Positions 6,001-53,391 of a DNA stretch of 64,000 nt are shown piece by piece. The translations under genes and the position numbers were made by a program. This stretch comes from Parcubacteria group bacterium M6-OD1-1 (lineage in GTDB: Bacteria > Patescibacteriota > Minisyncoccia > GWC2-36-17 > M10-OD1-4). The stretch is from assembly GCA_003056085.1 (NCBI GenBank), contig LSNK01000003.1, positions 2,744 through 66,743 on the forward strand. Reading direction: 5' to 3'. The notes under the pieces were generated by a model. It was not told the DNA's origin. It worked only from the letters and a program-made list of their open reading frames with translations, and searched no databases. The first letter of the stretch is position 1. Each line of letters opens with the position of its first letter.

Positions 6001-6800
6001 TTTATCTCAAGAACTTTAAATAAATTTTCTTCTTGATTTGATTTAATATCTTTGACAACTTCTTTTCTTGGTTGCAGCTGCTCCTCTGTAGTTGTACTTG
6101 TTTTTGTTTCTAAAACTTCCTGTGAAATATTTTTTTGTTCTTTAACTTTTTCAACGGTACTTGGTTTTTCTTCAATCTTTTTTCCAAAAAACCATTCTCT
6201 TATATTTTTTGCTATGCCGGTAAAAATATTTGCAGAAATATTTACATTTTCTTTTTTGGTCAAAACAAAACCATCGGCTGCAGAAGCAATTCTTGAAGAA
6301 TCACCCTCTGACAAAAATACTATGGAACTTCCGATATCAAAACCTGTGGACTCTGAAATTATTTTAGTAAAATTATGTCTTAAATAATTTTCATTTGCTT
6401 TTATAAATTTTACGGACTGTCCAAGTAAAATACCAAAAATAATAAAAACCCCCACATACATGACGGTTGTTTTTTTAGAAAATACTTTACTCAAAAAAAT
6501 CTCCTTAGCTAAAATTAGTTTTTTGTTTTTTAACGTCTGGGGATTTTTTTGGAATTTATTGTATTCTTGTTTTTGTTTTTGAGAAAGTTCTTTTTTTTGT
6601 TTTTGTTTTTTCTTGGTGTTTTGCTTCAAAAAAACTTCAAATGCATCTTCCTTTACATACCAAGAATTTCCAACTTTTTTCCCTTCCAATTTTCCCTGCC
6701 GACACAAACGAGAAATGTAGTCGTGAGTAAAACCACACCTTGAACCGGCATGCTTTGAAGAGATATATTTTTTCTTTTCAAAATAGAGAATTTTATCCAT
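1..6800 (-). CDS. Giant multi-domain membrane/surface protein, truncated at the window edge (more than 2266 aa in window). It has an N-terminal excisionase-type HTH, a Lys-rich linker, a TM helix and an extracellular tail-fibre-like body. That body carries GIGTTSPYAKLSV repeats, Hep_Hag-like repeats and an acidic Thr/Asp/Ser-rich C-terminal tail.
   Basis: The minus-strand frame (codon low-coordinates congruent to 0 mod 3) has no stop between the TAG at 6837-6839 and position 1. I checked this codon by codon over 6462-6836; the rest follows from the absence of any reported minus ORF in this frame. ATG at 6800 gives MDKILYFEKKKYISSKHAGSRCGFTHDYISRLCRQGKLEGKKVGNSWYVKEDAFEVF (HTH_17/excisionase-like), then a K/Q-rich linker. 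Alternative starts are TTG 6494 (strong AAGGAG SD 6 nt upstream) or ATG 6461, followed by the TM helix VMYVGVFIIFGILLG. Repeated SGNIGIGTTSPYAKLSV motifs occur (e.g. around 2706-2750, 3240-3300, 4130-4160, 4850-4880). NTxGYxNTAxGYxAL repeats are encoded around 1560-2290. All plus-strand ORFs in 11-6400 are antisense artefacts. Confidence 0.6.
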   Translation of the reverse strand, partial: MDKILYFEKKKYISSKHAGSRCGFTHDYISRLCRQGKLEGKKVGNSWYVKEDAFEVFLKQNTKKKQKQKKELSQKQKQEYNKFQKNPQTLKNKKLILAKEIFLSKVFSKKTTVMYVGVFIIFGILLGQSVKFIKANENYLRHNFTKIISESTGFDIGSSIVFLSEGDSSRIASAADGFVLTKKENVNISANIFTGIAKNIREWFFGKKIEEKPSTVEKVKEQKNISQEVLETKTSTTTEEQLQPRKEVVKDIKSNQEENLFKVLEINAGVDIGSGLSISGNVNSQGSLITGGSANIGRSITVEGTGTVRGSFTARNLSALLDLNVSGNSVFSKNITVGRNIAGSGSLSLGGGAAITGSLDVGNKITARGVMEAFGGITTNNTDINAGEGKVFASNIINKITAGSNITITGTASNPVISSSGGSGRSVFVSSSGVSSLQGETGALSLAAGTDISISGLTITNSSDLSTVASRGGCTDCIIDSYVVDGLTIGSGSIDATPIGSATSSTAIFTQATSTAFTIATSSADAVLTFSSTSTSDYKWSIGSDFSDGGSFKIASSSKLGTNDRFVIDGSGNIGIGTSSPTDVLSVNGPIYFSATSPSVTTNRLYNDSSGDLYWNGSLIGGSVGTWSASGGNVYRTTGNVGISTTSPYAKLSVVGEVVASNYTATTSATSTFTGGIQTNLLNVTSTTATSTFANGISISAGCFTKPDGTCLGIGDGITSLNGLLSGSQTFATSSDTNIGLTITSSGATHTFTSQWSGTLAASRGGTGQDFSASTGFIYLNSGTATASSTIAIPYTDLATGTGLSLTGSTISLNATISDLSDVNTSGVGYGNVLTWDGSDWVDTATSSLAINTDNLVEGSTNLFSQWTTSGSNIYYNTGNTGIGTTSPYAKLSVVGEVVASNYTATTSATSTFTGGIQTNLLNVTSTTATSTFANGVKLSSGGLQIAAIDCSGLGNGGKITTDANGYLVCSSDSGGAGVGASYLSDLLDVDTTGVAFGNVITYNGTSWVDTATSSLAIAISDTTGTLAVSRGGTGLTTFGGTNTLLYTTAADALASITTGNDGVLITSGTGVPSISSTLPTTVQGNITSLGTITSGVWNGTDIAVADGGTGLSTFGGSNTVLYTTAADVLASESAFTYNPSADRLSFTYASSTSLTTSGGAWFATGGGNVGIGTTSPYAKLSVVGETVAEYFTATSTTATSTFAGGFNVGSGGIVYDRSTGYVGIGTASPTKELHIGGGGQTPTNSNNGLYVNPNSYNAQMTIENKIGIEGGFFVNLSGLNFGTFSNVDLNFVTNNTPVAFLTTAGDFGIGEANPGARMEINADGGATDLLMLSSTAAVGDSGNLFIVKNSGNIGIGTTSPYAKLSVVGETVSEYFTATSTSATSTLPMLNATTAFTLGSDYLTDITGTGLQAASGVLSVNQSALNVESFATALTAGSVVFSNGSNLAQDNSNFFWDDTNNRLGIGTTSPYAKLSVAGFINTDQYSGYKQAGNTILYASSTNFSTLVGSGAGAALLADGFYNTALGYQALNVATSTDGSTAVGYQALSLNTVGYENTANGYQALAANTTGYRNTANGYQALTANTTGYMNTAIGRTALYSNTTGYENAANGDRALYSNTTGYSNIAVGKDSLFYNTTGYQNTAIGYKALRYTVSVSDNTAIGFESLYVTTGADNASVGSQSLRNNTTGYSNTAVGRLAQYYNISGYENTAIGVNAMRYNNTGYGNTAVGYRAGLGAGWNNTTFQNNVFLGYQAGSALATGNNNILLGYQAGDNLTIGGNNIILGYNIDAISTSSANTLNIGNLLFGTGLDGAGATLSSGNIGIGTTSPYAKLSVWGNGTSGVSALEIVDSASSTLFTVLDSGKVGIATTSPVSTLSVQGSLCVTVAGACGTTGGTIYADNLTIQQADLAEKYQAFEDGLEAGDVVAITEDILTASTTIDFKDSFGIVKANDKYKNAVGVISTKPGFTLGYSTTNGLPVALQGRIPVKVSGVIKTGDTLTASSISGVAVALSSEFSTGKVLGIALENYDSPEIGKVMMFANVGGSSKYSSISENIAEENTANPWMINTDQGETAYIGQYSLNLNNKEIKNIKALASASGAWGIDELGKITAKQIEVDQVKTKKLCIDDLCITKDQLKSILEASAIGFLSPDEDVTGTTTEAENEATDLNNSGVDETTESGTDTSVNSGADTSTDTSTDTTADSGDTTTTDTSATDDASAADTTTTDESDTSTTTTDDESTNITTDAEADANTDTSIVDSGDTTTNTS
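1560..2290 (-). repeat. Tandem 42-51-bp coding repeats encoding 14-17-aa NTTGYxNTAxGYQAL (Hep_Hag/YadA-head-like) units
   Basis: e.g. 2041-2091 and 2092-2142 are near-identical 51-mers (cctgttgtatttgcag.aag.gcttgataaccattggctgtattt..atat); more degenerate copies flank them. Confidence 0.7.
3992..4160 (-). repeat. Intragenic direct repeat copy A (about 170 bp); near-identical copy B lies exactly 720 bp downstream
   Basis: Lines 3961-4160 and 4681-4880 align base-for-base with about 3-4 mismatches (ccatttgcaaacgttgaggttgctgttgttgatgttacattaagaaggtttgtttggatgcctcctgtgaatgttgaagttgc...). Confidence 0.85.
4712..4880 (-). repeat. Intragenic direct repeat copy B (about 98% identical to 3992-4160)
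   Basis: Direct comparison of sequence lines; encodes a repeated protein module of the giant protein. Confidence 0.85.
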
Positions 6801-7486
6801 AAAATATTTCAGAATTTCTTGGGTCGTATTCCCGAACTAACTATAGTTTAACACGAAAAGTCGCCTAAGTTAAAACTAAAAACAACAAAATCTGTGGATA
6901 AAAAATAATGTTTGTTTTTTAGTAAAATATACTAAATTATCAACCTCAGAATTTCATTTTTAAAAAGCCTAACATTGCTATAAAATAAAATTAAAAGTCG
7001 TCTAAACGAACAGACGACCTTACCCCTTTTAGAGATAAAATGATCTAAATTTTACAATTTATAAATACAAAATAGAATTAATTTGGAAGCAAGGCTTCCA
7101 AATTAAAAGGTTTTAAGATTTTAAGATTTAAAAGCTTAAGGACTTAAATATTTAAACTTTTAAATATACCTGTATTTATTTCTTCAAAATATATAATTTT
7201 AAGCAACAAACTACAATAAAGCACAAACTTCTGTTTATAAGGCTTATATTCTATTTTTTGAGTTTTAATTTGGCATATTTTGTATTTTTTTGACTTTGTG
7301 ATTTACAATCACATTATTTGAAAATCAGTAATTTATTGTAATTTTACTGCAAAAACACCCTATCCAAAATAAATAAGATGCTTTTGTTTGAAATTCTAAA
7401 TTTAGTCTATTTTATTAGTTATTTCGCCTTAACGAACTGGTTAATTTTGTTCGTTATACTATAAAAATAATCAAAATACTATTAAA

Positions 7487-16868: not shown

Positions 16869-17558
16869 TTACCGCACATAACAATTTTTAACATATTTTT
16901 TTAATTCTTCTGCTAACTCACTTAACTCATTATCCGAATATGAAGATTCTTTTTTTAAAGCAGGTTCAATTAATTTTGTCGGAATAAATTTCTGTAAGAA
17001 ATAATTTTCCGCACCTTTGATTTCTTGCGCAATTTTTCTTAAATCATCTTTACTTAGAATAGACTTTACAATAGTTGTTCTAAACTCATATCCAACACTT
17101 GAGCTCATTAAAAGACTTATACTTTTTTTTAATTTTTCAACCGGGATTTGCCACCCTATGACTTTTGAATATTTCTTCAGCGGCGCCTTGATATCCATAG
17201 CAACATAATCAACTAATTTTCTTTTAATAAAGTTTTCTAAAACCTCCGGCCTGCTGCCGTTACTGTCTAATTTTACCAAAAAACCCATTGCTTTTATGTT
17301 TTCTATCATTTCAGATAAATCCGCATGCTGTGTTGGTTCACCTCCGGTAATGCACACCGCATCAAGTTTCCCGCGCCTATTATTTAAAAAATCATAAACT
17401 TCTGAAAGCGAAATTTCCGCGGTGTATCTTTCAGGAATAACCAATTCCGGATTATGGCAATACCTACAACGAAAATTACAACCAATCGTAAAAATTATTG
17501 CTGAAGTTTTACCCGGATAATCTATCAAAGAAAATTTTTGCAATCCACCAATAATCAT
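16869..17558 (-). CDS. nrdG: Anaerobic ribonucleoside-triphosphate reductase activating protein (radical SAM)
   Basis: CNFRCRYCHNPEL radical-SAM cluster motif; 229 aa; overlaps nrdD stop by 4 bp. Confidence 0.85.
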   Translation of the reverse strand: MIIGGLQKFSLIDYPGKTSAIIFTIGCNFRCRYCHNPELVIPERYTAEISLSEVYDFLNNRRGKLDAVCITGGEPTQHADLSEMIENIKAMGFLVKLDSNGSRPEVLENFIKRKLVDYVAMDIKAPLKKYSKVIGWQIPVEKLKKSISLLMSSSVGYEFRTTIVKSILSKDDLRKIAQEIKGAENYFLQKFIPTKLIEPALKKESSYSDNELSELAEELKKYVKNCYVR

Positions 17559-19645
17559 ACCGTTGTTTTATATGTTTCTCGTATATCAAATTCAGCTTTT
17601 TTACCGTCATTCCACTGCATTGTTGGGCGCAAGTAACCAACGATTCTTGAATACACCTCGCACGAGCTCTGACATTTGTCACAAACTTTTATCTCTCCTG
17701 AAATATATCCATGATTTTTACAAACGCTAAAGGTTGGTGTTAAAGTAAAATAAGGCAACTCATAATTTTCACATATTTTTCTCACTAAATTTTTAACACT
17801 TTCTCCGTCTCTTATCATTTCACCAAGAAAAAAGTGTAAAACCGTACCTCCGGTATATTTTGTCTGCAAACTATCTTGCAACTCTAAGGCCTCAAAAATA
17901 TCTTCTGTAAAATTAACAGGTAAATGTGTTGAATTGGTGTAAAATGGACTTTCTACGTCATCGCCTTTTCCATTGGCAAAGTTTGCATTTTCATATTTTT
18001 TTTGATCAAGAAGGGCCAGTCTAAATGATGTCCCTTCTGCCGGAGTTGCTTCAAGATTATAATTATTGCCGGTTTCTTTTTGAAAAGAAACCATTGTGTT
18101 ACGCATATAATCAAGCACTTTTTCTGCAAATTCTTTGCCTTTTGTTGTGGTTATTGTTTCTCCAAAAAGATTTTGCGTTGCTTCGCTCATCCCTACAAGA
18201 CCAATAGTAGAAAAATGATTTTCCCAATATTTCCCATAAGAAGATTTTATTTTTCTTAAATAAAATTTAGTATATGGATATAGTCCGCTATCAGTAAACC
18301 GTTCTAATACTTTTCTTTTTATTTCCAAACTTTCTTTAGCTAAAATCATTAATTCTTTCAATTTATTAAAAAATTCTTTCTTATTTTTTGCATCAAGAGC
18401 AATACGCGGTAAATTTATAGTTACAACCCCGATTGATCCTGTTAAAGGATTTGCACCAAAAAGCCCTCCACCGCGTTTTTGTAATTGTCTGTTATCTATT
18501 CTCAATCTACAACACATTGAGCGGGCATCATCAGGATCCATATCGGAGTTGATAAAATTTGAAAAATAGGGTAAACCATATTTCCCTGTTGCCTGCCATA
18601 ATAATTTAATGGAATCATTATCCCAATTAAAATCTTTTGTAATATTGTAAGTTGGAATTGGAAATGTAAAAACGCGGCCACTGGCATCTCCCTCCGACAT
18701 TACTTCTAAAAATGCTTCATTAAACATATCCATCTCTTTTTGAAATTCATGATATGTTTCTTTTTGCGGCTTGCCGCCGACTATAACCGACTGCTTTGCA
18801 TAATGCTTTGGAACCGTTAAATCTAAAGTGACATTTGTAAACGGCGTCTGAAAACCAACACGAGTTGGAACGTTAATATTAAAAATAAATTCTTGAAGAG
18901 CTTGCTTGACTTCTTTGTACCTTAATTTATCATATCTTATAAACGGAGCCAGCAAAGTGTCAAAATTACTGAATGCCTGGGCTCCCGCGGCTTCACCCTG
19001 TAAAGTATAGAAAAAATTAACAACCTGCCCAAGAGCAGACCGAAAATGCTTTGGAGGCTTGCTTGACACTTTGCCCTCAACTCCCTTAAAACCTTCCGCC
19101 AATAAGTCAAAGAGATCCCAGCCGACACAATAAACTGAAAGCAAATTTAAATCATGAATATGAAAATCACCATTTATATGAGCATTCTTGCTATTATCGG
19201 GATAAATTTTATTTAACCAATAATTCTTGCTTATTTCACTGGAAATATAATTATTTAAGCCCTGTAATGAATAGGACATATTGCTGTTTTCCTTAACCTG
19301 CCAATCAGTTTTGTGTAAATACTGCTCAACAAAATTATTATTAAAAGAATTATTAATATCTCTTAATTGTTTGTGTTGTTCTCTGTATAAAATATAAGCC
19401 TTGGCGGTTTTTTTAAATTTTGAACGCAATAAAACATTCTCGACTATATCTTGAATTTGTTCAACTTTAGGAATTTTGTCTTTTATGGTTTTATCAGCGC
19501 AATTTACAACTTTTTTTGTCAGTTCATTTGCTTCTTTAGAGCCAAATTCATCGGTTGCCTTCCCGGCCTTTATGATTGCAATAACAACTTTTTTTATATT
19601 AAAAGACACTGTCCTGCCGCTTCTTTTTTTTATTTGCTTATACAT
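17555..19645 (-). CDS. nrdD: Anaerobic ribonucleoside-triphosphate reductase, class III
   Basis: 696 aa; N-terminal ATP-cone-like region; C-terminal glycyl-radical motif SRIVGYLRP and Cys-rich Zn ribbon (CDKCQSSC). Confidence 0.88.
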   Translation of the reverse strand: MYKQIKKRSGRTVSFNIKKVVIAIIKAGKATDEFGSKEANELTKKVVNCADKTIKDKIPKVEQIQDIVENVLLRSKFKKTAKAYILYREQHKQLRDINNSFNNNFVEQYLHKTDWQVKENSNMSYSLQGLNNYISSEISKNYWLNKIYPDNSKNAHINGDFHIHDLNLLSVYCVGWDLFDLLAEGFKGVEGKVSSKPPKHFRSALGQVVNFFYTLQGEAAGAQAFSNFDTLLAPFIRYDKLRYKEVKQALQEFIFNINVPTRVGFQTPFTNVTLDLTVPKHYAKQSVIVGGKPQKETYHEFQKEMDMFNEAFLEVMSEGDASGRVFTFPIPTYNITKDFNWDNDSIKLLWQATGKYGLPYFSNFINSDMDPDDARSMCCRLRIDNRQLQKRGGGLFGANPLTGSIGVVTINLPRIALDAKNKKEFFNKLKELMILAKESLEIKRKVLERFTDSGLYPYTKFYLRKIKSSYGKYWENHFSTIGLVGMSEATQNLFGETITTTKGKEFAEKVLDYMRNTMVSFQKETGNNYNLEATPAEGTSFRLALLDQKKYENANFANGKGDDVESPFYTNSTHLPVNFTEDIFEALELQDSLQTKYTGGTVLHFFLGEMIRDGESVKNLVRKICENYELPYFTLTPTFSVCKNHGYISGEIKVCDKCQSSCEVYSRIVGYLRPTMQWNDGKKAEFDIRETYKTTV

Positions 19646-19963
19646 AAGACTTTTTTTGAATTAATTATTAAAAAAACTTGGCTAAAACGCCAAGCATCAA
19701 ACAATATCCAATATAGTCTTGAGACTTAAACGCGAGCCGAGAGCGGACTAATGCAGTCAAATTGTATGAGACCGGACTTTAACCGTTGCGCGACAGTGAG
19801 GGAATCACACCCTACTTCATCATACAAACCGCTATCTATAATTTTGTAAATACATAATAGCACAAAAAAATAATTTTCCAAAATCTTATATTTTTTGGTT
19901 TTTTGCCTTTTTTAAAAATTAAATTAAAATATTTCCAAATTTTTTCAATTAAATCCCTTCCTT

Positions 19964-37772: not shown

Positions 37773-37974
37773 TACTTTAATTATTTCCCTGATTTATTAA
37801 TATTTAATAAAAAAGTAAAGTATTTAAATCAGTAAAAATACTTTATTTATAAAGGGTACGATAACTTATTTTTAATGCATTGGCAATATTGACTTTTTTA
37901 TTAAAGTAGTGTATAATTACATTAATTAAAATGCACATTGAAAATCTAATATTATACATGAGGTATAAAACAAT

Positions 37975-38890
37975 GAATATCATTGAAAGTTTAATCTCTA
38001 ACTTTACGTTAGAAGGAATAATCACATTTCTGGTATTTTTATTGATTATCACCACCTTAGCATACCCAGTGATAAGATATTGCGTAAGCCATATCAACGA
38101 CAATGAAATGGCTTTAGCAAATTGGTTATTTGGATTTTACGGAAATGTAAAAGTTGGCCCCAGAGCTGTTCTTAGACTTCCCGGGTCAGAGTTTACTATA
38201 CACAGCACCGAGCCAAGAAAAGATAAGGCGGTGATTGAAAAAGTCTTTAAATCAGAGCCTGATCCAGGAGAATCCGGCTTTACAATTGAAGCTACGCTTT
38301 CATTTATTCTTTCTTTAAGTAAAGATGCTGATTGTGAAGGCTTTAAAGAATTCCATAGAATTCAAGAATCTTTGGAAAATGGAGCTTTTGTCTACATTGA
38401 GGCATGGATAGACAATCAAATAAGAAATTACAGGGGAAATGGAGAAATTGAAAATCCAAAAAATATAAAAAATGTTCAAGATCAGGTTGAAGAATCAGCA
38501 AGAACTGAACTTCAAAGACACATTGATGATTTGTCCAAGAAATCAGTTGTTATATTTGACTTCGGACTAAAACTTGACCTGGAGCAAGACGTAAGAGATG
38601 CAATGAAGCGCTCCGGCATTCAAGAATTAGACAATAAAGCATATGCGGCTAAATTCAAAGAGATTAAAAAAATAACGGCAGAATTGGTTGGAGATGACAT
38701 TAAACTTCCAAACCAACTTGCTGTTCTTATAGCTCTTAAAATTGCAAAAGAGCCCGGAGTGGACCTTTCAAAACAAATCCTTGATATTCAAGGCTTGGAA
38801 AACTTTAGGGGACTTATTGACACTCATGCAATTGAAAAAATAGCTCAAATGGCAACTAATTTCAGCAAGAACAAAAGAGGTGACAAATAA
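37975..38890 (+). CDS. Membrane-anchored SPFH/band-7-like protein (start may be 37931)
   Basis: N-terminal TM. GNVKVGPRAVLRLPGSEF and FGLKLDLEQDVRDAMKRSGIQELDNKAYAAKFKEI resemble the stomatin/HflC SPFH core and its C-terminal helix. Confidence 0.4.
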
Positions 38891-39516
38891 TGAATGCCAC
38901 TCAACTTCAAATACTAAAATTATTCAGAACCATAATAATTTTTAGCATTATTGCTGTAGTTATCCTTTTCTCGTTTTCTAAAATCTCAACTGAAAAAGAA
39001 GATAAGGAATCTCAAATAAAGCCCCGCACGGCAACCAGCAACATCACATGGAATTGCGCCGATAAGGACGGCAAAATTATTGCTATGATGGCATACGGAC
39101 AAAGCATAAAGATTACTCATAAAAAATTTCCGGCAAGGAAAAAAAATGAGTGCTCTTACGCTTATCCGGACAACTTCCGGGTAAACAATACGCCTTATTC
39201 TTCAAAGGTGTACGGCTTTCCCAAAAACAAGCTGCCAAAAAGCACAAGGGAATACATGAACAGCATTCCTTTCCCACAGTTCAAACCATGGACTATTGTG
39301 CTTGTTTTAACCAATAATCCAGACAATCCTCAAAACAACTACATAAAGGCTGCAGCATTTCAGTACGAAGGGCAATCCTTCTCTTTTGAAAATAAAACTT
39401 CAAAAGACAAACCTTTATATGTGGTTGCAATGTTTAACTATCCAGACACTATGTTCAATGAACAGATAGGCTACGGTGGATACACTATAACCTTAGGAGT
39501 TAAGCAATCAACTTAA
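38890..39516 (+). CDS. Membrane-anchored hypothetical protein
   Basis: ATGA-coupled to upstream gene; N-terminal TM; no recognisable motifs. Confidence 0.5.
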   Translation: MNATQLQILKLFRTIIIFSIIAVVILFSFSKISTEKEDKESQIKPRTATSNITWNCADKDGKIIAMMAYGQSIKITHKKFPARKKNECSYAYPDNFRVNNTPYSSKVYGFPKNKLPKSTREYMNSIPFPQFKPWTIVLVLTNNPDNPQNNYIKAAAFQYEGQSFSFENKTSKDKPLYVVAMFNYPDTMFNEQIGYGGYTITLGVKQST

Positions 39517-39523
39517 GCTAAAA

Positions 39524-39560
39524 CCCCTCTGACCAAAATGGTCAGAGGGGTTCTTTTTTT
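39524..39560 (+). terminator. Rho-independent terminator (cccctctgacc/ggtcagagggg, then T8)
   Basis: 11-bp GC-rich stem followed by ttcttttttttg. Confidence 0.8.
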
Positions 39561-39589: not shown

Positions 39590-39976
39590 TTAATACGTCC
39601 ACACACCGGCGATTGATTCTGAAATTGAAACGATAGAAAAAGACAAAATAGCTACAACGACCCCAACTACAACATAAATAAGCACATCTTTTGCTTTTTT
39701 TAATTTAGCCTCGTCTCCGCTGGCTGTTATAAATAAGATTCCTGAATAAAGACCAAAAACCACAGCAAGTAAAGCGACAAACCACGCAAACCAGTTAACT
39801 AATGATACAAATATATCTGCAATACCATAGCTGCCGGTATCAAAATTACCTTGTCTTCCTATTTGATCGCCTGTATATATCTCACCAATCCCTCCTTGCG
39901 GATAATCTTGAGCAAAAGAAACCGTCGGAAACAAAATAAAAACTAACAAAAAAACAGTTGCAATAATTTTTTTCAT
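39590..39976 (-). CDS. TrbC/VirB2-like pilin-family small secreted membrane protein (copy 1)
   Basis: Signal peptide (SFA|QD), Gly-rich spacer, then LVNWFAWFVALLAVVFGLYSGILFITASGDEAKLKKAKDVLIYVVVGVVVAILSFSIVSISESIAG. This is two hydrophobic helices separated by a short charged loop. Confidence 0.6.
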   Translation of the reverse strand: MKKIIATVFLLVFILFPTVSFAQDYPQGGIGEIYTGDQIGRQGNFDTGSYGIADIFVSLVNWFAWFVALLAVVFGLYSGILFITASGDEAKLKKAKDVLIYVVVGVVVAILSFSIVSISESIAGVWTY

Positions 39977-40030
39977 TTTTATAAAAATAAGTAATTATTC
40001 TTATATTATATCAATTCAAATTTAAAAAAA

Positions 40031-40056
40031 CAACCCTGTCAAAAAGACAGAGTTGT
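40031..40056. terminator. Bidirectional terminator hairpin between the pilin-like genes (caaccctgtc-aaaaa-gacagagttg flanked by A7/T5)
   Basis: Inverted repeat with one mismatch. Confidence 0.55.
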
Positions 40057-40080
40057 TTTTGAATGATTTTCTATTCAGTT

Positions 40081-40485
40081 TTACACTCCGGCAATTGATC
40101 TTGAGATTGAAACAATTGAGAATGCTAAAATAGCAACTACGATACCAACGATTGCATAAAGCAAAATGTTTTTTGCTTTTGTAACTTTTTCGTCGTCTCC
40201 CCCAGCTGTAATAAATAAAACTCCTGAATAAAGACCGAAAAGCACAGCAACTAAAGCAACAAACCATGCTACCCAGTTAATTAATCCTAATATCAAGTTT
40301 ACTAATTCTCCTGTTCCCGTTACAGCTCCTGTACTTCCGATATTAACACCTCCTGTAGGCGCTGTTCCAATACCTCCTGAAGGCGCTTGAGCTCCAACCA
40401 TCATAGGTACTGCCACGAAAGCAACTGCAACCATTGCCACCACAACAAATGCAATGGCTGACGGTAATGTTAAAGATAATTTCAT
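40081..40485 (-). CDS. TrbC/VirB2-like pilin-family protein (copy 2)
   Basis: Signal peptide, G/T/A-rich spacer, then LINWVAWFVALVAVLFGLYSGVLFITAGGDDEKVTKAKNILLYAIVGIVVAILAFSIVSISRSIAG (about 75% identical to the copy 1 core). Confidence 0.6.
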   Translation of the reverse strand: MKLSLTLPSAIAFVVVAMVAVAFVAVPMMVGAQAPSGGIGTAPTGGVNIGSTGAVTGTGELVNLILGLINWVAWFVALVAVLFGLYSGVLFITAGGDDEKVTKAKNILLYAIVGIVVAILAFSIVSISRSIAGV

Positions 40486-40701
40486 ATTTTTATTTTTATT
40501 TTAAAAAATTGTTAGATTCGACCTTTTTTGTTTTTAAAACTTATACACTAATTATACAATAAATTCTCTATTTGTGTCTACTAAACTGTTGATAACAAAA
40601 CAAGAATAAGAAATCAGAAATTAAGCATTTACTGTTTACTGTTTAACTTTATGTTTTATTCTTAATTCTTTTTTATATTTTATATTCTTCTCTTTCTACC
40701 T

Positions 40702-41442
40702 TTATCTTATAAATATTTCAACTATAGACAGTATACTAAATGCCAAAATAGCTACTGCTGTTCCAATTATAGCAAAGATAAATGTTTTAAAAGCTTTGGA
40801 AAGCTGCTCTGAATTTCCTGATGAGGTCATATATAAAAATCCGGAATAAAGACCCGCTGTGACAGAGATAATAGCAACAAACCACGCCATCCAATTAACC
40901 AATCCAACAAGAGCATTTACTATAACATTGCTTCCATTTGTTCCGACACAATTTGGCGTTGCAACTCCTGCAGAAGACCCAAATATATTGGAAATTAAGG
41001 CTACAATTCCCGGAGAAAGCAAAACAACAACAATACCTAAAATTGTGAAAACAAGGACTTTATTTGCTAATTTAATTTTTTCCGGATTACCACCTGATGT
41101 TAAAAACAAAAATCCCACTATTAATGTCATTAAAACCGCAATTGGCGGTATTATGTCCTGAGAAAAAAATATTGTTGCAGAACAAATAAAATCTGAAAAT
41201 GTTTCTGTGGCAGTTGGCGGCACAAAAGTATTAGATACAGAAAAATTTGCATTTTGGCACACACCTTGACCAAGATTATTTGGATTTTCAACACAATCAC
41301 TACCTGTTGCACATTCTGTAGGATTTCCTAAAGTACAAACCTGAGCTGAAACAAATCCCGAAAAACTAAAAAACACTGTAAAAAATAAAAATAATGTTAA
41401 TATTGATTTTTTTATTATTGTTCGCATCTTACTTCTGTCCAA
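40702..41442 (-). CDS. Tandem double TrbC/VirB2-like pilin-family protein with Cys-rich N-terminal region
   Basis: Signal peptide; CTLGNPTECATGSDCVENP...; first hairpin IAVLMTLIVGFLFLTSGGNPEKIKLANKVLVFTILGIVVVLL; second hairpin LVNWMAWFVAIISVTAGLYSGFLYMTSSGNSEQLSKAFKTFIFAIIGTAVAILAFSILSI. Confidence 0.55.
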   Translation of the reverse strand: MDRSKMRTIIKKSILTLFLFFTVFFSFSGFVSAQVCTLGNPTECATGSDCVENPNNLGQGVCQNANFSVSNTFVPPTATETFSDFICSATIFFSQDIIPPIAVLMTLIVGFLFLTSGGNPEKIKLANKVLVFTILGIVVVLLSPGIVALISNIFGSSAGVATPNCVGTNGSNVIVNALVGLVNWMAWFVAIISVTAGLYSGFLYMTSSGNSEQLSKAFKTFIFAIIGTAVAILAFSILSIVEIFIR

Positions 41443-41828
41443 GGATTATAAAATATTTTTGCTGTTCCTGTTGCTTGACCTGAAAAAAACAACAAGAATT
41501 CATTTATAATAATCCATGCTCCAAACACTATTAAAAGTCCTATTATTGCAGTTTTTATAGCTTTGTATCCCGCTTGTTTTTTTGCCGGCTCACCTCCGGC
41601 AATTAAAATATTAAAACCTCCCCATGCAATAATAAATACAGCAAGAGAAGGAGCCACTCCCCACATCAAAAAATTTACAATATTTTGCGTTAAATCATAA
41701 AGATCACATAAATTGCAGGGATTTCCAAGTTCACCACAAGGAACAATCGCAGCTGAAGCAGCTACGGGTAAAACTAAAACCGCTACTGAAAAAATAATTA
41801 TTAATTTATAGATTTGATTTTTAAACAT
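41415..41828 (-). CDS. Divergent TrbC/VirB2-like pilin-family protein (copy 4) with N-terminal CxxxxxxCxxC motif
   Basis: Signal peptide; CGELGNPCNLCDL; NFLMWGVAPSLAVFIIAWGGFNILIAGGEPAKKQAGYKAIKTAIIGLLIVFGAWII. Confidence 0.5.
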   Translation of the reverse strand: MFKNQIYKLIIIFSVAVLVLPVAASAAIVPCGELGNPCNLCDLYDLTQNIVNFLMWGVAPSLAVFIIAWGGFNILIAGGEPAKKQAGYKAIKTAIIGLLIVFGAWIIINEFLLFFSGQATGTAKIFYNPWTEVRCEQ

Positions 41829-41914
41829 ACTCTGTAAATTCTAAAATTTGATTTGATTTTTATTTATTCTTTAACAAAAAGATTATACTAAAATCTATAT
41901 TCTAAACTCAAGCC

Positions 41915-44900
41915 CTATATTCCCGCGACAGATCTTGCTATAGCTATTATACTAAACGATAATACAGCTACAACCACTCCAACCATTGTATAAATAATGT
42001 ATCTTTTTGCTAATTCAAGTTTTGCCGCATCTCCAGCTGATGTTATATAAGTATAACCTCCACGAAGACCATAGACAACAGCAAACACGGCAACAAGCCA
42101 AGCAAACCACTGCAAAATTGCAAGAAGCACAGCAACTATAGAACAATTTTGACTTGGACCTATGCCGGTTCCCGGAGCCGTGCCTTGAAACTCAATGCCC
42201 AAAACATTACAAACACTGCCCGAAGACCCTGTTAATTGGTTAGACCCTGTTTCACAAATACCCGTAATAATATTGAAAGACGTTCCTAACGGACAAGGAT
42301 CACCACCGCAAATTCCATCTTGCGGACAAACGCTGCTGTCCGGACATATTGTTCCCGGCGTACAAGATGTTACAAAATCACAAGAACCGGAATTTGAATT
42401 ATATACTGTTCCTGCAGGACAAGTTGGGCAGACTCCGTTTTCCGGACATATTGCTCCATTAGCACATATTGTCCCTGGGTCACAATTTCCTACAGTTGGA
42501 GTGTTGTTGTCTCCCCCAACTTCAAAAGTTATCTGACATTTATTGCTTAAATTCTGTTGTCCGGTATTAATATTTACAGCAAGATCCTGACATTGGACAT
42601 AATATGCATTATATCCTTCAACAAGACCTGAAACACTTTCTGAATGAGAAATATTATCAATGGTACTGAAAGTATTTTCCATTGTAAAAAAGTTTATAAA
42701 GCCTCCATTTTGGTCATAATAATTAGTATCAAACTTACAAACAGACGCCACGCCGGACGTCATTCCTATATTAGTATTTATCGTACCTGAAGGATATATT
42801 GTACCTGCGGGAGGATTAGATCCAGAACAAGCCGGCAAACCGCAATATCCAGAATCAAGACAAATACTGCCACCCGTACAATCAGCATCTACCGTACAAG
42901 CCTCCCCAACTCTAACCGGTATTTGACATGCTGAGGTTTCTTCTCCTGTTGTTGTATTTTCACACCTGATAAGATATCTATTTATGTCGGGTAATGGAAA
43001 TAATCCTGTTACTAAAGTTTCATGACTTAAAAGACCGGTTGCACCAAACAGTGTCATGGTCGGACTATTGAAAGTATCTTCCGGGTTTGTTGAATACTTG
43101 CAATTTACATTTTCATCTGTTGCAAGTCCTATATATGCTTGCGTTATACCAACCGGTAAATTTAAAAATACATTCATAGGATCGCTTGTTTGAGTTTCTT
43201 TAACATAAGCTCCGTCACATTGAGGAATAGTTAACCAGCTTGCAGGTTCACACTGCCCTGTTGTGGAATTCCAAATTTCTCCTTCACCGCACGGAGCAAC
43301 ACAAGAAGCACCTATATCACAAGCATCTGAAACATTTGGGTCACAAGTAGAAACACAAGTTCCGTTCAAGCAGACATCTCCTTGATTTGGACAACTTCCA
43401 TCAGATGAGCATGCGTCTTGAGGATTTATAACCGACCCAACAGAGACATCTGTCAAAACACAATCAACAAAATCAGGACCCAAAGCGGTATCATTTGAAA
43501 TGCCTTTGTAAGAAATACCGTATTCCGGATTTGGGTTATATACATAACCTGAATATGACCTTCCTTGTGAATTGGGATTGGTGCAGTCTATAGCTCCATT
43601 TGAACTGAATATACAACCCGCTCCAGAATTTGAGGTTACCGTATCTGCTGTACAATCAGCTATTGTTTCAAATCCTTGAGTTGAAATATTGCATCCGGCC
43701 GGAATTCCGGCTAAAGACCCTGAAGGCAAGCAATTTGTTAAACCATCTTCATAGTAAATACATCCTGTTGGATATTTTTCATCACAAACATTAACAATCT
43801 CTCCATTTTCTCCATAATAAATACATCCTGACAACTCAAGCGGGGCGTCTGTCGTACAATCTACAAAGCTGTTTCTGTCTACAGGATTTCCGTAAGAATC
43901 ATAATTATAATACAAACACCCATTTATACCTTCGCAATTATTTGGAGCGTTTTGCGTCGGCTGTGTACATGCCTCTCCTCCTGATTGAAGACCTATTGGC
44001 ATAAGAGGCTTCTCTGAAGGTACTATCAAAGTATCAATGATTGTTCCCCTACTCACCCCTGAATCATCAACACAATTATAAACCGCATCTTCCACCGCAG
44101 CCCTGCACTTCGCTTCTCCAGCGGTGCAAGTTGTTCCATCTAAAGGACAAATACCGCTTTCAGGACAAATTTCAAGCTCAGGTCCTATACAAAAATCTCC
44201 CAATACAGCATTCTTTCCGCAGGAAAATTCTGATAAAGAAAAATCTGTGCTAAATATATATTCTCCGGGAGAACATGCATTTCCATTGGAATAAAAACCA
44301 ATTTGAGGACATGCTTCTATAAAAGGACTGCACACGCTCAAAACATTTGGCTGCCTTAAGCTAAGAGCACAATCATAAGGTGATAAACTTTGTGAGTCTC
44401 CCGTTGGCAAAATAGTCTGGGGATTAGTTGATGCTTGAGGACTTGCAATACAAAATCCGCTTGTATTTCCATTTGGAATAAAACATGTATTATCTCCTGG
44501 ACATTGAGAATCGTTTGAGCATGTTATTAAACAAGCATTTAAATCCGGCGAAACAAAAGAAACAGACTGGGTTACTGTATCTATAGCTCCATTAATATCT
44601 GTTACTGTAAGTATTATCGTATAATTACCTTCTGCGTTGTATGTATGAGACACTACAGCCCCTGTTGATGTTGTACTATCTCCCCAATTCCAAAAATAAG
44701 ATAAAGTAGCTGTTTCTCCAAGGTCGGTATCGTAACTTGCTGAAGCATCAGCTTCAACAAAAAAATTAAAACTGTCGTTATTTGATTGGGTTATACTCGG
44801 AGAAACAACCATAGATGCTACAGGAGCAGTATTTTGAGATATTGTATTTAATGGATCGCCCGTATACACTACACTACTTGAGTCAAATTCAATCCAACCC

Positions 44901-45490
44901 AAAACACTATTTCCCCAAGCAAAACCGGACCATGTTCCATTTTGAAATACCGTCACTCCAAGATTAGTGTCCATAAATTGAATCCATCCATCCCAATTTG
45001 GGTCAACTAAAGATGAACATGAAATTGAGGTGCAAGCACTCAAAACCCTCGCCCATCCTATAATTCTATTTGTACTTGAATCTAATTTCGCAAGATAATT
45101 ACTGTTTGTAAATTGACTGTCAAAAGAAGCGTTTCCAGTCGTTGGAGGATCTCCTGTTTCTAATCTTTCAAAACTTATCCAGCCAACATTATCTGACCAA
45201 GCATGCCCTATTACGGTTCTTGCAGGAATGTTTAAAGCCCCTGACTCACTATCCATAACTATGTGAGTCCCCCAATTATTTGCGCAATCTGCAACTTGAT
45301 CACTCAAATTTTGTGATGCCGCCTCACTGCTATGACATGAAAAACTTATCCAACCAATATTATCTGACCAAGCCCAACCTCTTATATTATTATATTCCGT
45401 TCCATTTATATCTATAGCTTCAGAAAAACTCGGCATTAAAAAAAATGCAAAAAGAAAAATTAAAGTAAAAATTTTGAAAATACAACTCAT
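41915..45490 (-). CDS. 1191-aa secreted Cys-rich multi-domain protein. It has N-terminal G(W/H)AWSDN(I/V)GWISF repeats and a PKD domain. A long disulfide-rich body follows, ending in a TrbC/VirB2-like pilin hairpin (a putative pilus-displayed adhesin).
   Basis: Signal peptide; RGWAWSDNIGWISF / IGHAWSDNVGWISF / WDGWIQF / LGWIEF repeats; PKD-like SYFWNWGDSTTSTGAVVSHTYNAEGNYTIILTVTD; more than 90 Cys; C-terminus ILQWFAWLVAVFAVVYGLRGGYTYITSAGDAAKLELAKRYIIYTMVGVVVAVLSFSIIAIARSVAGI. Confidence 0.65.
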   Translation of the reverse strand: MSCIFKIFTLIFLFAFFLMPSFSEAIDINGTEYNNIRGWAWSDNIGWISFSCHSSEAASQNLSDQVADCANNWGTHIVMDSESGALNIPARTVIGHAWSDNVGWISFERLETGDPPTTGNASFDSQFTNSNYLAKLDSSTNRIIGWARVLSACTSISCSSLVDPNWDGWIQFMDTNLGVTVFQNGTWSGFAWGNSVLGWIEFDSSSVVYTGDPLNTISQNTAPVASMVVSPSITQSNNDSFNFFVEADASASYDTDLGETATLSYFWNWGDSTTSTGAVVSHTYNAEGNYTIILTVTDINGAIDTVTQSVSFVSPDLNACLITCSNDSQCPGDNTCFIPNGNTSGFCIASPQASTNPQTILPTGDSQSLSPYDCALSLRQPNVLSVCSPFIEACPQIGFYSNGNACSPGEYIFSTDFSLSEFSCGKNAVLGDFCIGPELEICPESGICPLDGTTCTAGEAKCRAAVEDAVYNCVDDSGVSRGTIIDTLIVPSEKPLMPIGLQSGGEACTQPTQNAPNNCEGINGCLYYNYDSYGNPVDRNSFVDCTTDAPLELSGCIYYGENGEIVNVCDEKYPTGCIYYEDGLTNCLPSGSLAGIPAGCNISTQGFETIADCTADTVTSNSGAGCIFSSNGAIDCTNPNSQGRSYSGYVYNPNPEYGISYKGISNDTALGPDFVDCVLTDVSVGSVINPQDACSSDGSCPNQGDVCLNGTCVSTCDPNVSDACDIGASCVAPCGEGEIWNSTTGQCEPASWLTIPQCDGAYVKETQTSDPMNVFLNLPVGITQAYIGLATDENVNCKYSTNPEDTFNSPTMTLFGATGLLSHETLVTGLFPLPDINRYLIRCENTTTGEETSACQIPVRVGEACTVDADCTGGSICLDSGYCGLPACSGSNPPAGTIYPSGTINTNIGMTSGVASVCKFDTNYYDQNGGFINFFTMENTFSTIDNISHSESVSGLVEGYNAYYVQCQDLAVNINTGQQNLSNKCQITFEVGGDNNTPTVGNCDPGTICANGAICPENGVCPTCPAGTVYNSNSGSCDFVTSCTPGTICPDSSVCPQDGICGGDPCPLGTSFNIITGICETGSNQLTGSSGSVCNVLGIEFQGTAPGTGIGPSQNCSIVAVLLAILQWFAWLVAVFAVVYGLRGGYTYITSAGDAAKLELAKRYIIYTMVGVVVAVLSFSIIAIARSVAGI

Positions 45491-46782
45491 TTAGATAAAA
45501 TTTTTGAATTAATTTCAGAAGCTGCCCTTCTTAAGGCTAAAGCTTCTGACTGCTCGCTTAAAACATGCTGGTCCATCATATTAATCAAAACCTTGTCTAC
45601 AAGAGTATTGTTAAGCTGAAACCAAGAGTCTGCGGTCAATGCTTGGTTTGCAAAAATAGCAAGATTAGGATCATCTTGTTGAATTGCAAGAACAGCTCTC
45701 TGGCTTGCCGGTTCTTCAATTTGAGAAAGGTAAAAAGCAGCATTTTTAGGTTCTGCTAAAAACTTTAAAAAATTCCAAGCAGCAATTTTATCGGGAGAAT
45801 TTGAATAAACACCATAACCCCAATAATTAGCATAATTTTTTTTGATTACACTGTCTTTTTTTTGAGGCATATAGGCTACATTAAATCTTAGCCTCGGGGC
45901 TTTTTGCAATATACTATTTTTTGTCCATGAGTAACCAAACATCATGGCTACTCTTCCTAAAGCAAACATATTTTGAGAATCATTTTTAAAATTTTGAGAC
46001 CAAGAATAATTTTCACTTTTTGGTCTTGCAAATTCAGAATAGAATTTTAGAGCATTTTCAGCTCCGGAATTTTTTTCCCTATCAAAAATAATTTCTCCGG
46101 ATAAAGGATCAGACATTTTAGATCCGTTTTGAATCATAAGCAGCGACAAAATATCGGGAGATCTTAAAATATTTTTCCCAGATCCCAAAGCAGCGCCGGA
46201 AACCAATATTTCTCCTGTTCCTGTTTTTTTCGTCAAAAGTTTTGCGTACTTTTCAAACTCTTCCCAATCTTTTGGCGGCTCTATAAGACCCGCGCTATTG
46301 AAAAGATCTATATTATAATAAAGCGCCAAAGTATCCACATATAAAGGAATCCCGTATATATTTTCTTCAAATGTAAAATCTTTTTGAACTACATCAACAA
46401 ATCTTTTTCTAAAATCATTTATAGAAAATATATCTGAAGTTACAGGAGCTAAAAGATCTCTAAACTTCGGAGTCCATGTGTTGTGTGTCATAAAAATATC
46501 CGGTCCTTTTCCTGCTGCAAAAGCACGAACCAACTCATCTTCATAATTTTGAACAGATTTTTTTCTATAAGTTATAGTTACATTAGGATTCTTTGATGTA
46601 AAAGCTTGAATAAGAGGAGTAATGGCATCTGAATCATCAAAAACCCCCCAAACCTCCAATTCAGAAGGTGGGATATTTTTAAATTTAAATTTAAGCCCAG
46701 GAACAACTCCCAGATAAATCAAAAATATAAAAAGAATAACTAGAACAACTGAACCTATTATAAGTATTTTGGTTAAATTCAT
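45487..46782 (-). CDS. ABC-transporter extracellular solute-binding protein (family 1, sugar-type), orphan
   Basis: N-terminal TM/signal anchor. DIFMTHNTWTPKF, GIPLYVDTLALYYNIDLFNSAGL and PPKDWEEFEKYAKLLTKK are typical of SBP_bac_1. No permease or ATPase is adjacent, and the stop overlaps the giant gene start (ATGA). Confidence 0.65.
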   Translation of the reverse strand: MNLTKILIIGSVVLVILFIFLIYLGVVPGLKFKFKNIPPSELEVWGVFDDSDAITPLIQAFTSKNPNVTITYRKKSVQNYEDELVRAFAAGKGPDIFMTHNTWTPKFRDLLAPVTSDIFSINDFRKRFVDVVQKDFTFEENIYGIPLYVDTLALYYNIDLFNSAGLIEPPKDWEEFEKYAKLLTKKTGTGEILVSGAALGSGKNILRSPDILSLLMIQNGSKMSDPLSGEIIFDREKNSGAENALKFYSEFARPKSENYSWSQNFKNDSQNMFALGRVAMMFGYSWTKNSILQKAPRLRFNVAYMPQKKDSVIKKNYANYWGYGVYSNSPDKIAAWNFLKFLAEPKNAAFYLSQIEEPASQRAVLAIQQDDPNLAIFANQALTADSWFQLNNTLVDKVLINMMDQHVLSEQSEALALRRAASEINSKILSK

Positions 46783-52770: not shown

Positions 52771-53391
52771 TTATTTAGTTAAAAGCTTCAGGCTTCCTGT
52801 TTTTGTTATTTCAAATATTTCAACAAAATTAATAATTTTCAAATCTTTTAAGTCACTTAAAAAGTCTCTCGGTACAACTACTTTTCCCATCCAAACACTT
52901 TTTTGAACTATTTTAAAATCCATTTTTACAAGAGCATGCCTTAACCATGCTCTCTTATGTCTATCTCTTTCAGGGATATCAAATATTATAATCGTAACTC
53001 TACTACTCTTTTTATTTTTATAATCAATAATAGGAAAATCCCCCATTTTTTTCTGTAAATTTTTTATTAAACTTATTTTTTTAATTCCCTTCTTAGTAAT
53101 TTTAAAAGTAAAACTATGATTACTTTTACGTTTTTCTAATAATCCGCACTTTTCTAATCTGTTTACCATAGAATGAAATCTATCATTTATTTTTTTCTTG
53201 TTATTTTTTGATAATTTCTGATATTCTATATTGAATCTTTTTCTAAATTGTCCATTCTCCGCTTTACGCTCAATCTCATTTAAAGAAGCACCGTAACTAG
53301 AAGTTATAAAAACATCTAAAAGATCCGCTGTATCCAGTGCAGCATCTTTTAATATTTCTAAGAATTTTAAAGTTTTATCTCCTCTTTTCAT
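52771..53391 (-). CDS. Two-domain protein with an N-terminal winged-HTH-like domain and a C-terminal Cas2/VapD-like (PaaX-C-like) domain
   Basis: N-terminal LNEIERKAENGQFRK...LEKCGLLEKRKSNHSFTFKITKKG (wHTH-like). C-terminal RVTIIIFDIPERDRHKRAWLRHALVKMDFKIVQKSVWMGKV fits the Cas2-like pattern (beta1 with Asp, basic helix, G.RVQ.SVW). No CRISPR array or other cas genes lie nearby. Confidence 0.45.
   Translation of the reverse strand: MKRGDKTLKFLEILKDAALDTADLLDVFITSSYGASLNEIERKAENGQFRKRFNIEYQKLSKNNKKKINDRFHSMVNRLEKCGLLEKRKSNHSFTFKITKKGIKKISLIKNLQKKMGDFPIIDYKNKKSSRVTIIIFDIPERDRHKRAWLRHALVKMDFKIVQKSVWMGKVVVPRDFLSDLKDLKIINFVEIFEITKTGSLKLLTK

Follow-up and report, generated by a model that had tools for sequence, protein, structure and literature searches.

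A gyrA-adjacent operon of T4SS_pilin-family hairpin proteins with a pilin-fused giant ectodomain and a solute-binding-type partner in a Parcubacteria group bacterium

Next to gyrA on the chromosome of Parcubacteria group bacterium M6-OD1-1 lies a cluster of genes for hairpin-bearing proteins of the cell envelope. We describe this cluster from a 64,000-nucleotide stretch of contig LSNK01000003.1 (positions 2,744 to 66,743 of the forward strand; assembly GCA_003056085.1), hereafter called the window, to which all coordinates refer. Six consecutive open reading frames (ORFs) fill positions 39590-46782 of its minus strand, with the boundaries given in a preliminary description of the sequence. In the order of transcription, they encode a solute-binding-type protein (SBP_bac_1), a giant protein of 1191 amino acids (aa), a 137-aa pilin, a tandem-hairpin pilin, a 134-aa pilin and a 128-aa pilin. 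The five genes that follow the first all carry the hairpin, as that description had proposed. Their products belong to a curated pilin family, one module of which is fused to the giant ectodomain; the genes have the structure of an operon, and the binding protein is the partner of the pilins.

The four small proteins comprise a divergent, cysteine-patterned pilin of 137 aa (41415..41828), the tandem-hairpin pilin (40702..41442; 246 aa if read from TTG 41442), a 134-aa pilin with a Gly-rich spacer (40081..40485) and a 128-aa pilin (39590..39976), which is the closest paralogue of the hairpin in the giant protein. All of them exceed the gathering cut-off (26.6 bits) of the Pfam family PF18895, named T4SS_pilin after the type IV secretion system (T4SS), with scores of 41.3 bits for the 137-aa pilin, 46.0 for the tandem pilin, 44.2 for the 134-aa pilin and 34.8 for the 128-aa pilin. 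Hydropathy analysis places a hydrophobic leader with an AxA-type site at each N-terminus (SFA/Q, AQA/P, VSA/Q, ASA/A), after which come a variable spacer and a pair of hydrophobic helices (two pairs in the tandem protein). The common plan of leader, spacer and two-helix hairpin that the preliminary description had recognised is thus recovered, and so is its tandem gene. In this protein, PF18895 matches two stretches and a small-pilin hidden Markov model (HMM) finds domains at residues 76-155 and 169-246. An AlphaFold2 model of the 134-aa pilin, built on an alignment of 55 homologues, consists of two helices of ∼35 residues each (58-93 and 98-132) joined by a 4-residue turn. The predicted local distance difference test (pLDDT) score of this model is 76 overall and 85-91 within the hairpin.

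PF18895 is a large family, with 62,104 clusters at 50% identity (E ≤ 1e-3), and includes proteins with 2-17 tandem hairpins, equivalent to 4-34 transmembrane helices. Because tandem hairpins are common in the family, the double hairpin of the window is not unusual. Counterparts of the tandem pilin measure 206-253 aa in the orthologous loci examined, and a two-hairpin ORF is found in 15 more distant loci. Proteins P0271, P0295, P0305 and P0311 carry many hairpins, up to 17 (1775 aa); some proteins of this type combine PF18895-type hairpins with TrbC-type ones (PF04956) and have a large ectodomain at their end, and P0311 contains a HELAH zinc-protease-like motif.

The 137-aa pilin differs from its neighbours in its cysteines. 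Behind the leader it has a VPCG...CNLC pattern, and a lone Cys is located close to the C-terminus; in 37 of 61 loci, a pilin of this type is the first to follow the binding protein. When pilins of this type from many related loci are aligned, a conserved 'VP-CG ... C(N/T)LC' motif appears together with a terminal Cys in 'NPWT..C' or 'WN.FP.C'. The N- and C-terminal tails, both predicted to lie outside, could be tied by a disulfide, a covalent counterpart, if formed, to the way in which TrbC/VirB2 is cyclised head to tail.

The giant PKD/Cys-rich secreted protein (41915..45490, minus strand) begins with a leader and contains 69 Cys (5.8% of its residues), with long Cys-rich stretches. Its N-terminal module of ∼170 aa (residues 30-210; 44861..45403) holds repeats of the type GWxWS..GWI.F. 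The preliminary description had counted four GWAWSDN(I/V)GWISF repeats; two of these are exact and the other two degenerate. Pfam did not recognise this module even at E = 1; it is common to ∼38 other large proteins, several of them annotated as Patescibacteria. The PKD domain that had been noted together with the Cys richness is recognised by PF18911 (PKD_4) with 57.2 bits (residues 245-309; 44564..44758). In an AlphaFold2 model built from 11 orthologues, the mean pLDDT is 54.7, and the usable parts are the PKD domain, two beta-sandwich domains (residues 751-995; 42506..43240) and the hairpin. Apart from the PKD stretch and the hairpin, residues 751-995, at pLDDT ∼70-86, are the sole extended region of this quality. 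Of the modelled parts, the PKD domain alone was confirmed by Foldseek, which returned PKD matches at template modelling scores of 0.74-0.89.

The C-terminal hairpin of the giant protein (residues 1111-1191; 41918..42160) is modelled as two helices, 1118-1150 and 1155-1188. PF18895 matches residues 1117-1178 with 26.0 bits, 0.6 below the cut-off. We therefore compared it with an HMM built from 55 small pilins from which the giant protein had been left out. Residues 1111-1190 score 90.2 bits against this model (independent E-value 3e-27), whereas the best of 2000 composition-preserving shuffles of the C-terminus scored 15.3 bits. Among 551 stop-to-stop segments of the window, the HMM matches these five genes only, despite the many other membrane proteins encoded there. 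By BLASTP, the C-terminus is 53% identical to the 128-aa pilin over 74 aa, a closer likeness than that of the 137-aa pilin to its own neighbours. Across ten orthologues, conservation is 0.72 in the hairpin and 0.80 in the 20 residues that precede it, compared with 0.26-0.59 in the ectodomain. Given the HMM score, the shuffles, the identity to a paralogue and the conservation of the hairpin, a generic transmembrane anchor does not fit; the C-terminus is a true pilin module and the most conserved part of the protein. The claim that the giant protein ends in the same hairpin as the small pilins is thereby upheld.

A word-indexed homologue search with the 91-aa C-terminus alone yielded 12 candidates and was uninformative. 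Around 12 full-length orthologues of the giant protein were found, at 38-56% identity and in the same gene order. Every orthologous locus examined retains gyrA, the binding protein, the giant protein, a pilin of ∼140 aa, a tandem pilin of ∼206-253 aa and two to four small pilins, with (rpsA, ftsH) after them. In another genome, an 1887-aa SBBP/PKD protein ends in the same hairpin (91.4 bits), with one tandem and three small pilins behind it. What changes between loci is thus the ectodomain, which can be exchanged, while the pilin module stays constant.

Fusions of pilin hairpins to extracellular cargo recur in these arrays, with the PKD/SBBP giants as one kind and an SLT lytic transglycosylase as another. 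In related arrays it is the first pilin that is enlarged, for instance to T4SS_pilin plus SLT lytic transglycosylase or to T4SS_pilin plus PKD repeats (912 aa). Both place the hairpin towards the N-terminus and the cargo towards the C-terminus, and a further relative combines PG_binding_1 with two hairpins. A hairpin with both ends outside allows cargo to be attached at either end of the pilin. The SLT fusion at L058 (4830-6113) has both domains above their Pfam cut-offs, and the product of L091 2314-3507 looks similar to it by eye. Two further proteins, L060 3471-4547 and L040 9370-10896, share the sequence 'SCHYGG(K/R)TG..GA.A(V/I)D', which is reminiscent of LAS/M15 peptidases; they have no Pfam match.

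The operon is led by the gene of the 431-aa solute-binding-type protein (45487..46782, minus strand), which matches SBP_bac_1 (PF01547) with 121 bits and SBP_bac_8 with 108 bits. The protein is tethered to the membrane by an N-terminal hydrophobic anchor (residues 1-34). Its closest solved relatives are the sugar-binding proteins Lin1841, MalE-type proteins and UgpB (E 4e-19 and weaker), and aromatic residues are strictly conserved across the subfamily. Pfam scans of ∼44 ORFs of the 64-kb window found neither an ATP-binding cassette (ABC) permease nor an ABC ATPase. A screen for Walker A plus an LSGGQ-type signature motif over 737 kb of sequence flanking 80 homologues of the binding protein likewise failed to reveal an ABC-ATPase-like ORF. 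The absence of permease and ATPase partners noted in the preliminary description is thus borne out by Pfam in the window and by motif screen at the related loci.

These 80 loci, at 35-71% identity, were obtained by scanning metagenome contigs with an alignment of the binding protein; 53 of them were informative, with at least 1.5 kb downstream of the binding-protein gene. In 50 of the 53, between one and seven hairpin ORFs lie on the same strand directly 3' of this gene, usually within 100 nt, compared with two of 53 in the upstream control. One of the three other loci has long ORFs (900 aa and at least 1766 aa) that extend beyond the fetched stretch. The loci are diverse: GyrA is 51-62% identical to that of the window in all but two of them, and their GC content spans 28-60%. 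Five loci (four independent) have no upstream gyrA and still carry five to seven pilin genes 3' of the binding-protein gene. The proposed coupling of the binding protein to a pilin module is therefore well founded, and the data support a specific association with pilin arrays beyond this lineage, across diverse Patescibacteria. The recurrent neighbours of the 80 loci within 8 kb are gyrA, a small S-adenosylmethionine (SAM) methyltransferase, a metallo-beta-lactamase (MBL)-fold protein, S1, FtsH and VanW, all of them housekeeping genes. A SAM-methyltransferase-like protein of ∼181 aa is encoded between gyrA and the binding-protein gene at ∼56 of the 80 loci (for example L062 7317-7862), and is not there in the window.

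The genes are tightly spaced. The stop codon of the binding-protein gene and the start codon of the giant gene overlap in ATGA, as had been claimed, and the 137-aa gene overlaps the tandem-hairpin gene. For the latter, ATG 41427 (241 aa) is a likelier start than TTG 41442; an independent gene call agrees, and this start still overlaps the stop codon of the 137-aa gene. An intrinsic-terminator-like hairpin with a T-run lies 3' of the 134-aa gene (40026..40060, minus strand), and a promoter-like site, TAGACA-18-TATAAT, matches the consensus at 11 of 12 positions 5' of the same gene (40551..40580, minus strand; consensus match only). A hairpin with a 14-bp stem (39522..39552, strand unassigned) is situated between the 128-aa pilin gene and the convergent gene at 38890-39516, and looks like a bidirectional terminator at the end of the operon. 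Over the region as a whole, promoter-like sites (37, against 27.2±4.8 in shuffles) and terminator-like sites (7, against 4.9±2.7) are not clearly enriched. The binding-protein, giant, 137-aa and tandem-pilin genes look like one transcription unit, with the last two genes separately terminated. The preliminary description had assigned each pilin gene its own promoter and terminator. This is borne out for just two of the four genes: terminator-like hairpins were seen 3' of the 134-aa and 128-aa genes only and a near-consensus promoter-like site before the 134-aa gene, and the 137-aa and tandem genes overlap.

On the plus strand, two overlapping genes (37931-38890 and 38890-39516) converge on the end of the pilin operon. 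They encode membrane-anchored proteins of 319 and 208 aa with no Pfam match, and opposite-strand gene pairs of similar size, likewise without Pfam match, occupy the same position in several orthologous loci (L001, L004, L005 and L103).

The remainder of the window is of housekeeping character (ATP synthase, IF-2, NrdD, several aminoacyl-tRNA synthetases, FtsH, S1, GyrA, MurD and ThiI), its GC content is ∼0.32, and relatives of the locus are labelled Candidatus Azambacteria or Patescibacteria group. Positions 1-6836 (minus strand) are taken up by a single ORF, which encodes at least 2278 aa and extends past the window start; it explains the higher GC content (0.39-0.43) of this part and the absence of listed ORFs there. 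Its product has a helix-turn-helix-like N-terminus, a transmembrane segment, long Gly/Ser/Thr-rich repeats and Thr/Asp-rich low complexity at the window edge. An rRNA operon had been considered for positions 1-6000, a GC-rich and ORF-poor stretch, and was rejected, as there is no Rfam match and the stretch consists of this ORF. An AdoCbl-II (B12) riboswitch (19759-19837, minus strand; 40.3 bits, gathering cut-off 36.5) lies directly 5' of nrdD (17555-19645) and the gene of its radical-SAM activase (16869-17558). A 206-aa protein (52771-53391, minus strand) matches the PaaX central/Cas2-like domain with 40.6 bits and CRISPR_Cas2 with 23.9 bits against a cut-off of 23.8; no other cas genes were seen in the window.

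The hairpin genes can be placed among pilins that have already been described in Patescibacteria. The literature treats PF18895 proteins as VirB2-like pilins, and tandem arrays of 2-11 VirB2-like genes are known from 383 Patescibacteria assemblies (Quiñonero-Coronel et al. 2025, PMC12102498). The pilin array in the T4SS cluster of Southlakia epibionticum is essential (Wang et al. 2023, PMC10633639), and in Paceibacterales, T4SS pilins rank with the unknown genes of highest expression (PMC10936435). If such an array is defined as 2-11 PF04956/PF18895 genes in tandem or one gene apart, the five consecutive genes of the window form one, and on sequence grounds their products are to be filed under PF18895 and with the published VirB2-like arrays. 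As in those arrays, the paralogues are PF18895 proteins in a tandem set of strongly divergent members in a monoderm, ultra-small bacterium. The core of the system, a VirB2-like pilin array in a Patescibacterium, is therefore already known, a point that the preliminary description had missed (PMC12102498, PMC10633639).

The differences concern position and composition. The published essential array sits inside a virB4 cluster, whereas the array of the window is adjacent to gyrA, and the 64 kb around it yielded no T4SS gene. A solute-binding-type protein heads it, and among its members are a pilin fused to an ectodomain of ∼1,100 residues and a conserved subunit with tandem hairpins. Neither a binding protein nor fused pilins are mentioned in the 2025 survey, in which, according to its authors, adhesins were not detected (PMC12102498). 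Likewise, we found no report in the searchable literature that joins the candidate phyla radiation (CPR), a solute-binding protein and a pilin. The binding-protein-led operon and the pilin-fused ectodomains are thus well supported as variants that are apparently new and undescribed in that literature.

The relation to the conjugative pilins TrbC, VirB2, TrwL and TraA is less certain. These share the leader, the two hydrophobic helices and the short polar loop, and the same inferred topology with both ends outside. TrbC/VirB2 pilins polymerise with phospholipid into a helical extracellular fibre, and their termini are processed or cyclised. In contrast to these proteins of Gram-negative bacteria, those of the window have short leaders (22-34 aa) in a cell with no outer membrane, are not accompanied by virB3 or virB4, and either stay below the cut-off of PF04956 (TrbC) or do not match it: two of the five, including the 137-aa pilin, score 20 bits (cut-off 27.9), and the others have no match. 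Indirectly in favour of a link, some relatives carry above-threshold PF04956 hairpins (58-109 bits) beside PF18895 hairpins in one polypeptide, and the 137-aa type aligns to the hairpin of one relative (60.8 bits on PF04956) with 64% hhalign probability. A tblastn search of plasmids with a relative's TrbC-type hairpin gave no match. Fold searches with the hairpin were non-discriminating and returned a generic helical hairpin only. All five hairpins also match a pilin-like conjugal transfer protein of Mycoplasma integrative and conjugative elements (NF045849, Mbov_0395 family) over nearly the whole 80-residue model, with E-values of 1e-7 to 4e-3. The scores of 17-31 bits are all below the cut-off of 40; both hosts are monoderm, but the locus of the window is not on a mobile element.

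Other surface systems offer analogies of design. The fimbrial adhesins FimH and PapG are two-domain proteins, in which a receptor-binding domain is followed by a pilin domain. The giant protein follows the same logic, with a putative binding ectodomain joined to a module homologous to the subunits of the fibre. However, the Ig-like donor-strand exchange fold and the assembly machine of FimH and PapG are unrelated to the helical hairpin, and in the arrays described here fusion occurs at either end of the pilin. Solute-binding proteins have precedents as well: in Sulfolobus, sugar-binding proteins are assembled by the pilin-like Bas system into the bindosome, and PrgZ of pCF10 recruits the chromosomal Opp permease. 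In both cases, a protein of solute-binding fold works with a pilin-like or conjugation-related surface system and has no adjacent permease of its own. The clusters of binding protein differ from ours, however, as do the pilin types, which are type IV pilin-like in Sulfolobus. Finally, the Pam pili of CPR bacteria are built from Ig-like pilins by donor-strand exchange and encoded by a pam operon, and hence belong to a different fold class from the hairpins of the window (bioRxiv 2026.03.03.709456). The sole Pam match was PamR on the PKD domain of the giant protein, with 16 bits against a cut-off of 300.

Taken together, we regard the locus as a gyrA-adjacent chromosomal operon of envelope subunits based on PF18895 hairpins, whose likeliest product is a VirB2-type fibre that displays the giant protein as an adhesin; we give this interpretation about an even chance. 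In this model, all subunits would be exported by Sec and their leaders cleaved. The hairpins would insert into the cytoplasmic membrane so that their two tails face outward and their Lys-rich loop inward, and would then be drawn from this membrane pool into a homotypic assembly, most probably a short VirB2-type filament. The filament may be made by an MPF_FATA-like VirB4 machine encoded elsewhere in the genome, as in most Patescibacteria (VirB4 is present in 2,407 of ∼3,035 assemblies; PMC12102498). The small pilins would supply the bulk subunits, and the giant protein would enter as a minor subunit via its pilin module, holding ∼1,100 residues of GW-repeat, PKD, beta-sandwich and disulfide-rich modules outside as a host-cell adhesin. 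In other lineages, the same position would be taken by cell-wall hydrolase cargo. The binding protein would serve as an assembly accessory and not as a component of uptake; its likeliest role may be to bind a glycan of the host or of the cell's own envelope and thereby position or trigger assembly, and a role as a chaperone is also possible.

Several observations weigh against such a fibre. Pfam scans of the window found no VirB4, VirB6, VirB3, VirD4 or pilus ATPase, in agreement with what the preliminary description had reported for most of these genes, and no T4SS gene is among the recurrent neighbours of the 80 related loci. Consequently, the gene set by which an MPF_FATA-like T4SS is recognised (VirB4, VirB6 and VirB3/PrgI near the pilins) is found neither in the 64-kb window nor among the recurrent neighbours, within 8 kb, of the related loci. 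Comparison by hhalign with VirB2/TrwL gave non-significant probabilities of 9%, 5%, 4% and 0.3%, with Agrobacterium VirB2 alone and a shallow alignment of seven VirB2/TrwL sequences from annotated plasmids, of MPF_T type only, as references. A profile search of PDB sequences with the hairpin gave no relevant match, and the searchable literature contains no observation of a VirB2-type filament in a Patescibacterium. An ectodomain of ∼1,100 residues would be sterically demanding on a tightly packed VirB2-type fibre, and family members with as many as 17 hairpins in tandem are no harder to reconcile with an array embedded in the membrane than with a fibre. Moreover, the synteny with gyrA means that part of the gene order may be an inherited block and not a sign of functional coupling. 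Of the original designation of the small proteins as TrbC/VirB2-like pilins, membership in the curated T4SS_pilin family stands; the link to TrbC/VirB2 proper proved weak, as reflected by 20 bits on PF04956 for two proteins and hhalign probabilities of at most 9%.

A structure other than a pilus would account for some of these points. The hairpins may form a ring or raft in the cytoplasmic membrane, with the giant protein as an anchored adhesin that co-assembles with its small paralogues and the binding protein docked onto this platform. We consider this rather unlikely, and yet the most serious competitor of the fibre. It agrees with the failure to find T4SS genes close to any of ∼90 loci, with polyproteins of 2-17 hairpins and 4-34 transmembrane helices, and with fold searches that recover a generic helical hairpin without a significant link to VirB2/TrwL. 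However, the essential pilin array within the S. epibionticum T4SS cluster is likewise made up of PF18895 proteins, a simple anchor needs no four to seven divergent paralogues per operon, and its hairpin would not be expected to be more conserved (0.72) than the ectodomain.

Alternatively, the binding protein could be the centre of a bindosome-like device for capture or uptake, in which the hairpin structure holds it beyond the wall or S-layer, or passes host glycans inward in place of an ABC permease. The binding protein is indeed the first gene and the invariant partner of the arrays, its subfamily has strictly conserved aromatic residues, no ABC-ATPase-like ORF is found nearby, and the sugar-binding proteins and Bas system of Sulfolobus provide a precedent. 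Nevertheless, no energising component was identified, and cargo of adhesins and peptidoglycan hydrolases points to attack or attachment; we judge this explanation improbable.

No more probable, in our view, is a coincidental neighbourhood, in which an ordinary binding protein of an ABC importer with partners elsewhere is carried along in an inherited gyrA-to-ftsH block. The similarity to normal sugar-binding proteins and the conservation of gyrA, the MBL-fold gene, rpsA and ftsH as further neighbours speak in its favour. It is at odds with the five loci that keep the pair without an upstream gyrA, with the tight or overlapping spacing, with cargo genes whose insertion ahead of the first pilin, behind the binding-protein gene, leaves the unit unbroken, and with 737 kb of flanks in which the motif screen found no ABC-ATPase-like ORF. 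A cassette of holins, bacteriocin-immunity proteins or other small phage or membrane proteins unrelated to pili, suggested by the small size, two transmembrane helices and tandem occurrence, is very improbable and disfavoured, given that PHROGs has no match, the T4SS_pilin assignment is above threshold, the context is housekeeping and not phage, and hydropathy predicts cleavable signal peptides.

Patescibacteria are estimated to make up 15-50% of bacterial species (bioRxiv 10.64898/2026.03.03.709456), and their attachment to and exploitation of host cells are largely unexplained. VirB2-like pilins are essential in the one species tested genetically, yet neither an adhesin nor a function of the pilins has been identified. 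The locus and its relatives supply candidates, in the form of pilin modules with adhesin-like and peptidoglycan-cleaving domains and a conserved ligand-binding partner. In addition, a large share of so-called T4SS pilin genes lies in this type of operon without a nearby T4SS gene, which questions whether all of them are T4SS substrates. A further-reaching idea, which we regard as doubtful, is that the binding protein, the Cys-patterned first pilin, the tandem pilin, the small pilins and the cargo-fused pilins form a distinct and widely conserved surface organelle, separate from the virB4 cluster, in which interchangeable adhesin or hydrolase cargo is mounted on a VirB2-like scaffold that is primed or targeted by a glycan-binding protein. 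If this were true, the organelle would supply the device for host attachment or attack that has been missing in these epibionts, and a new modular design of fibre.

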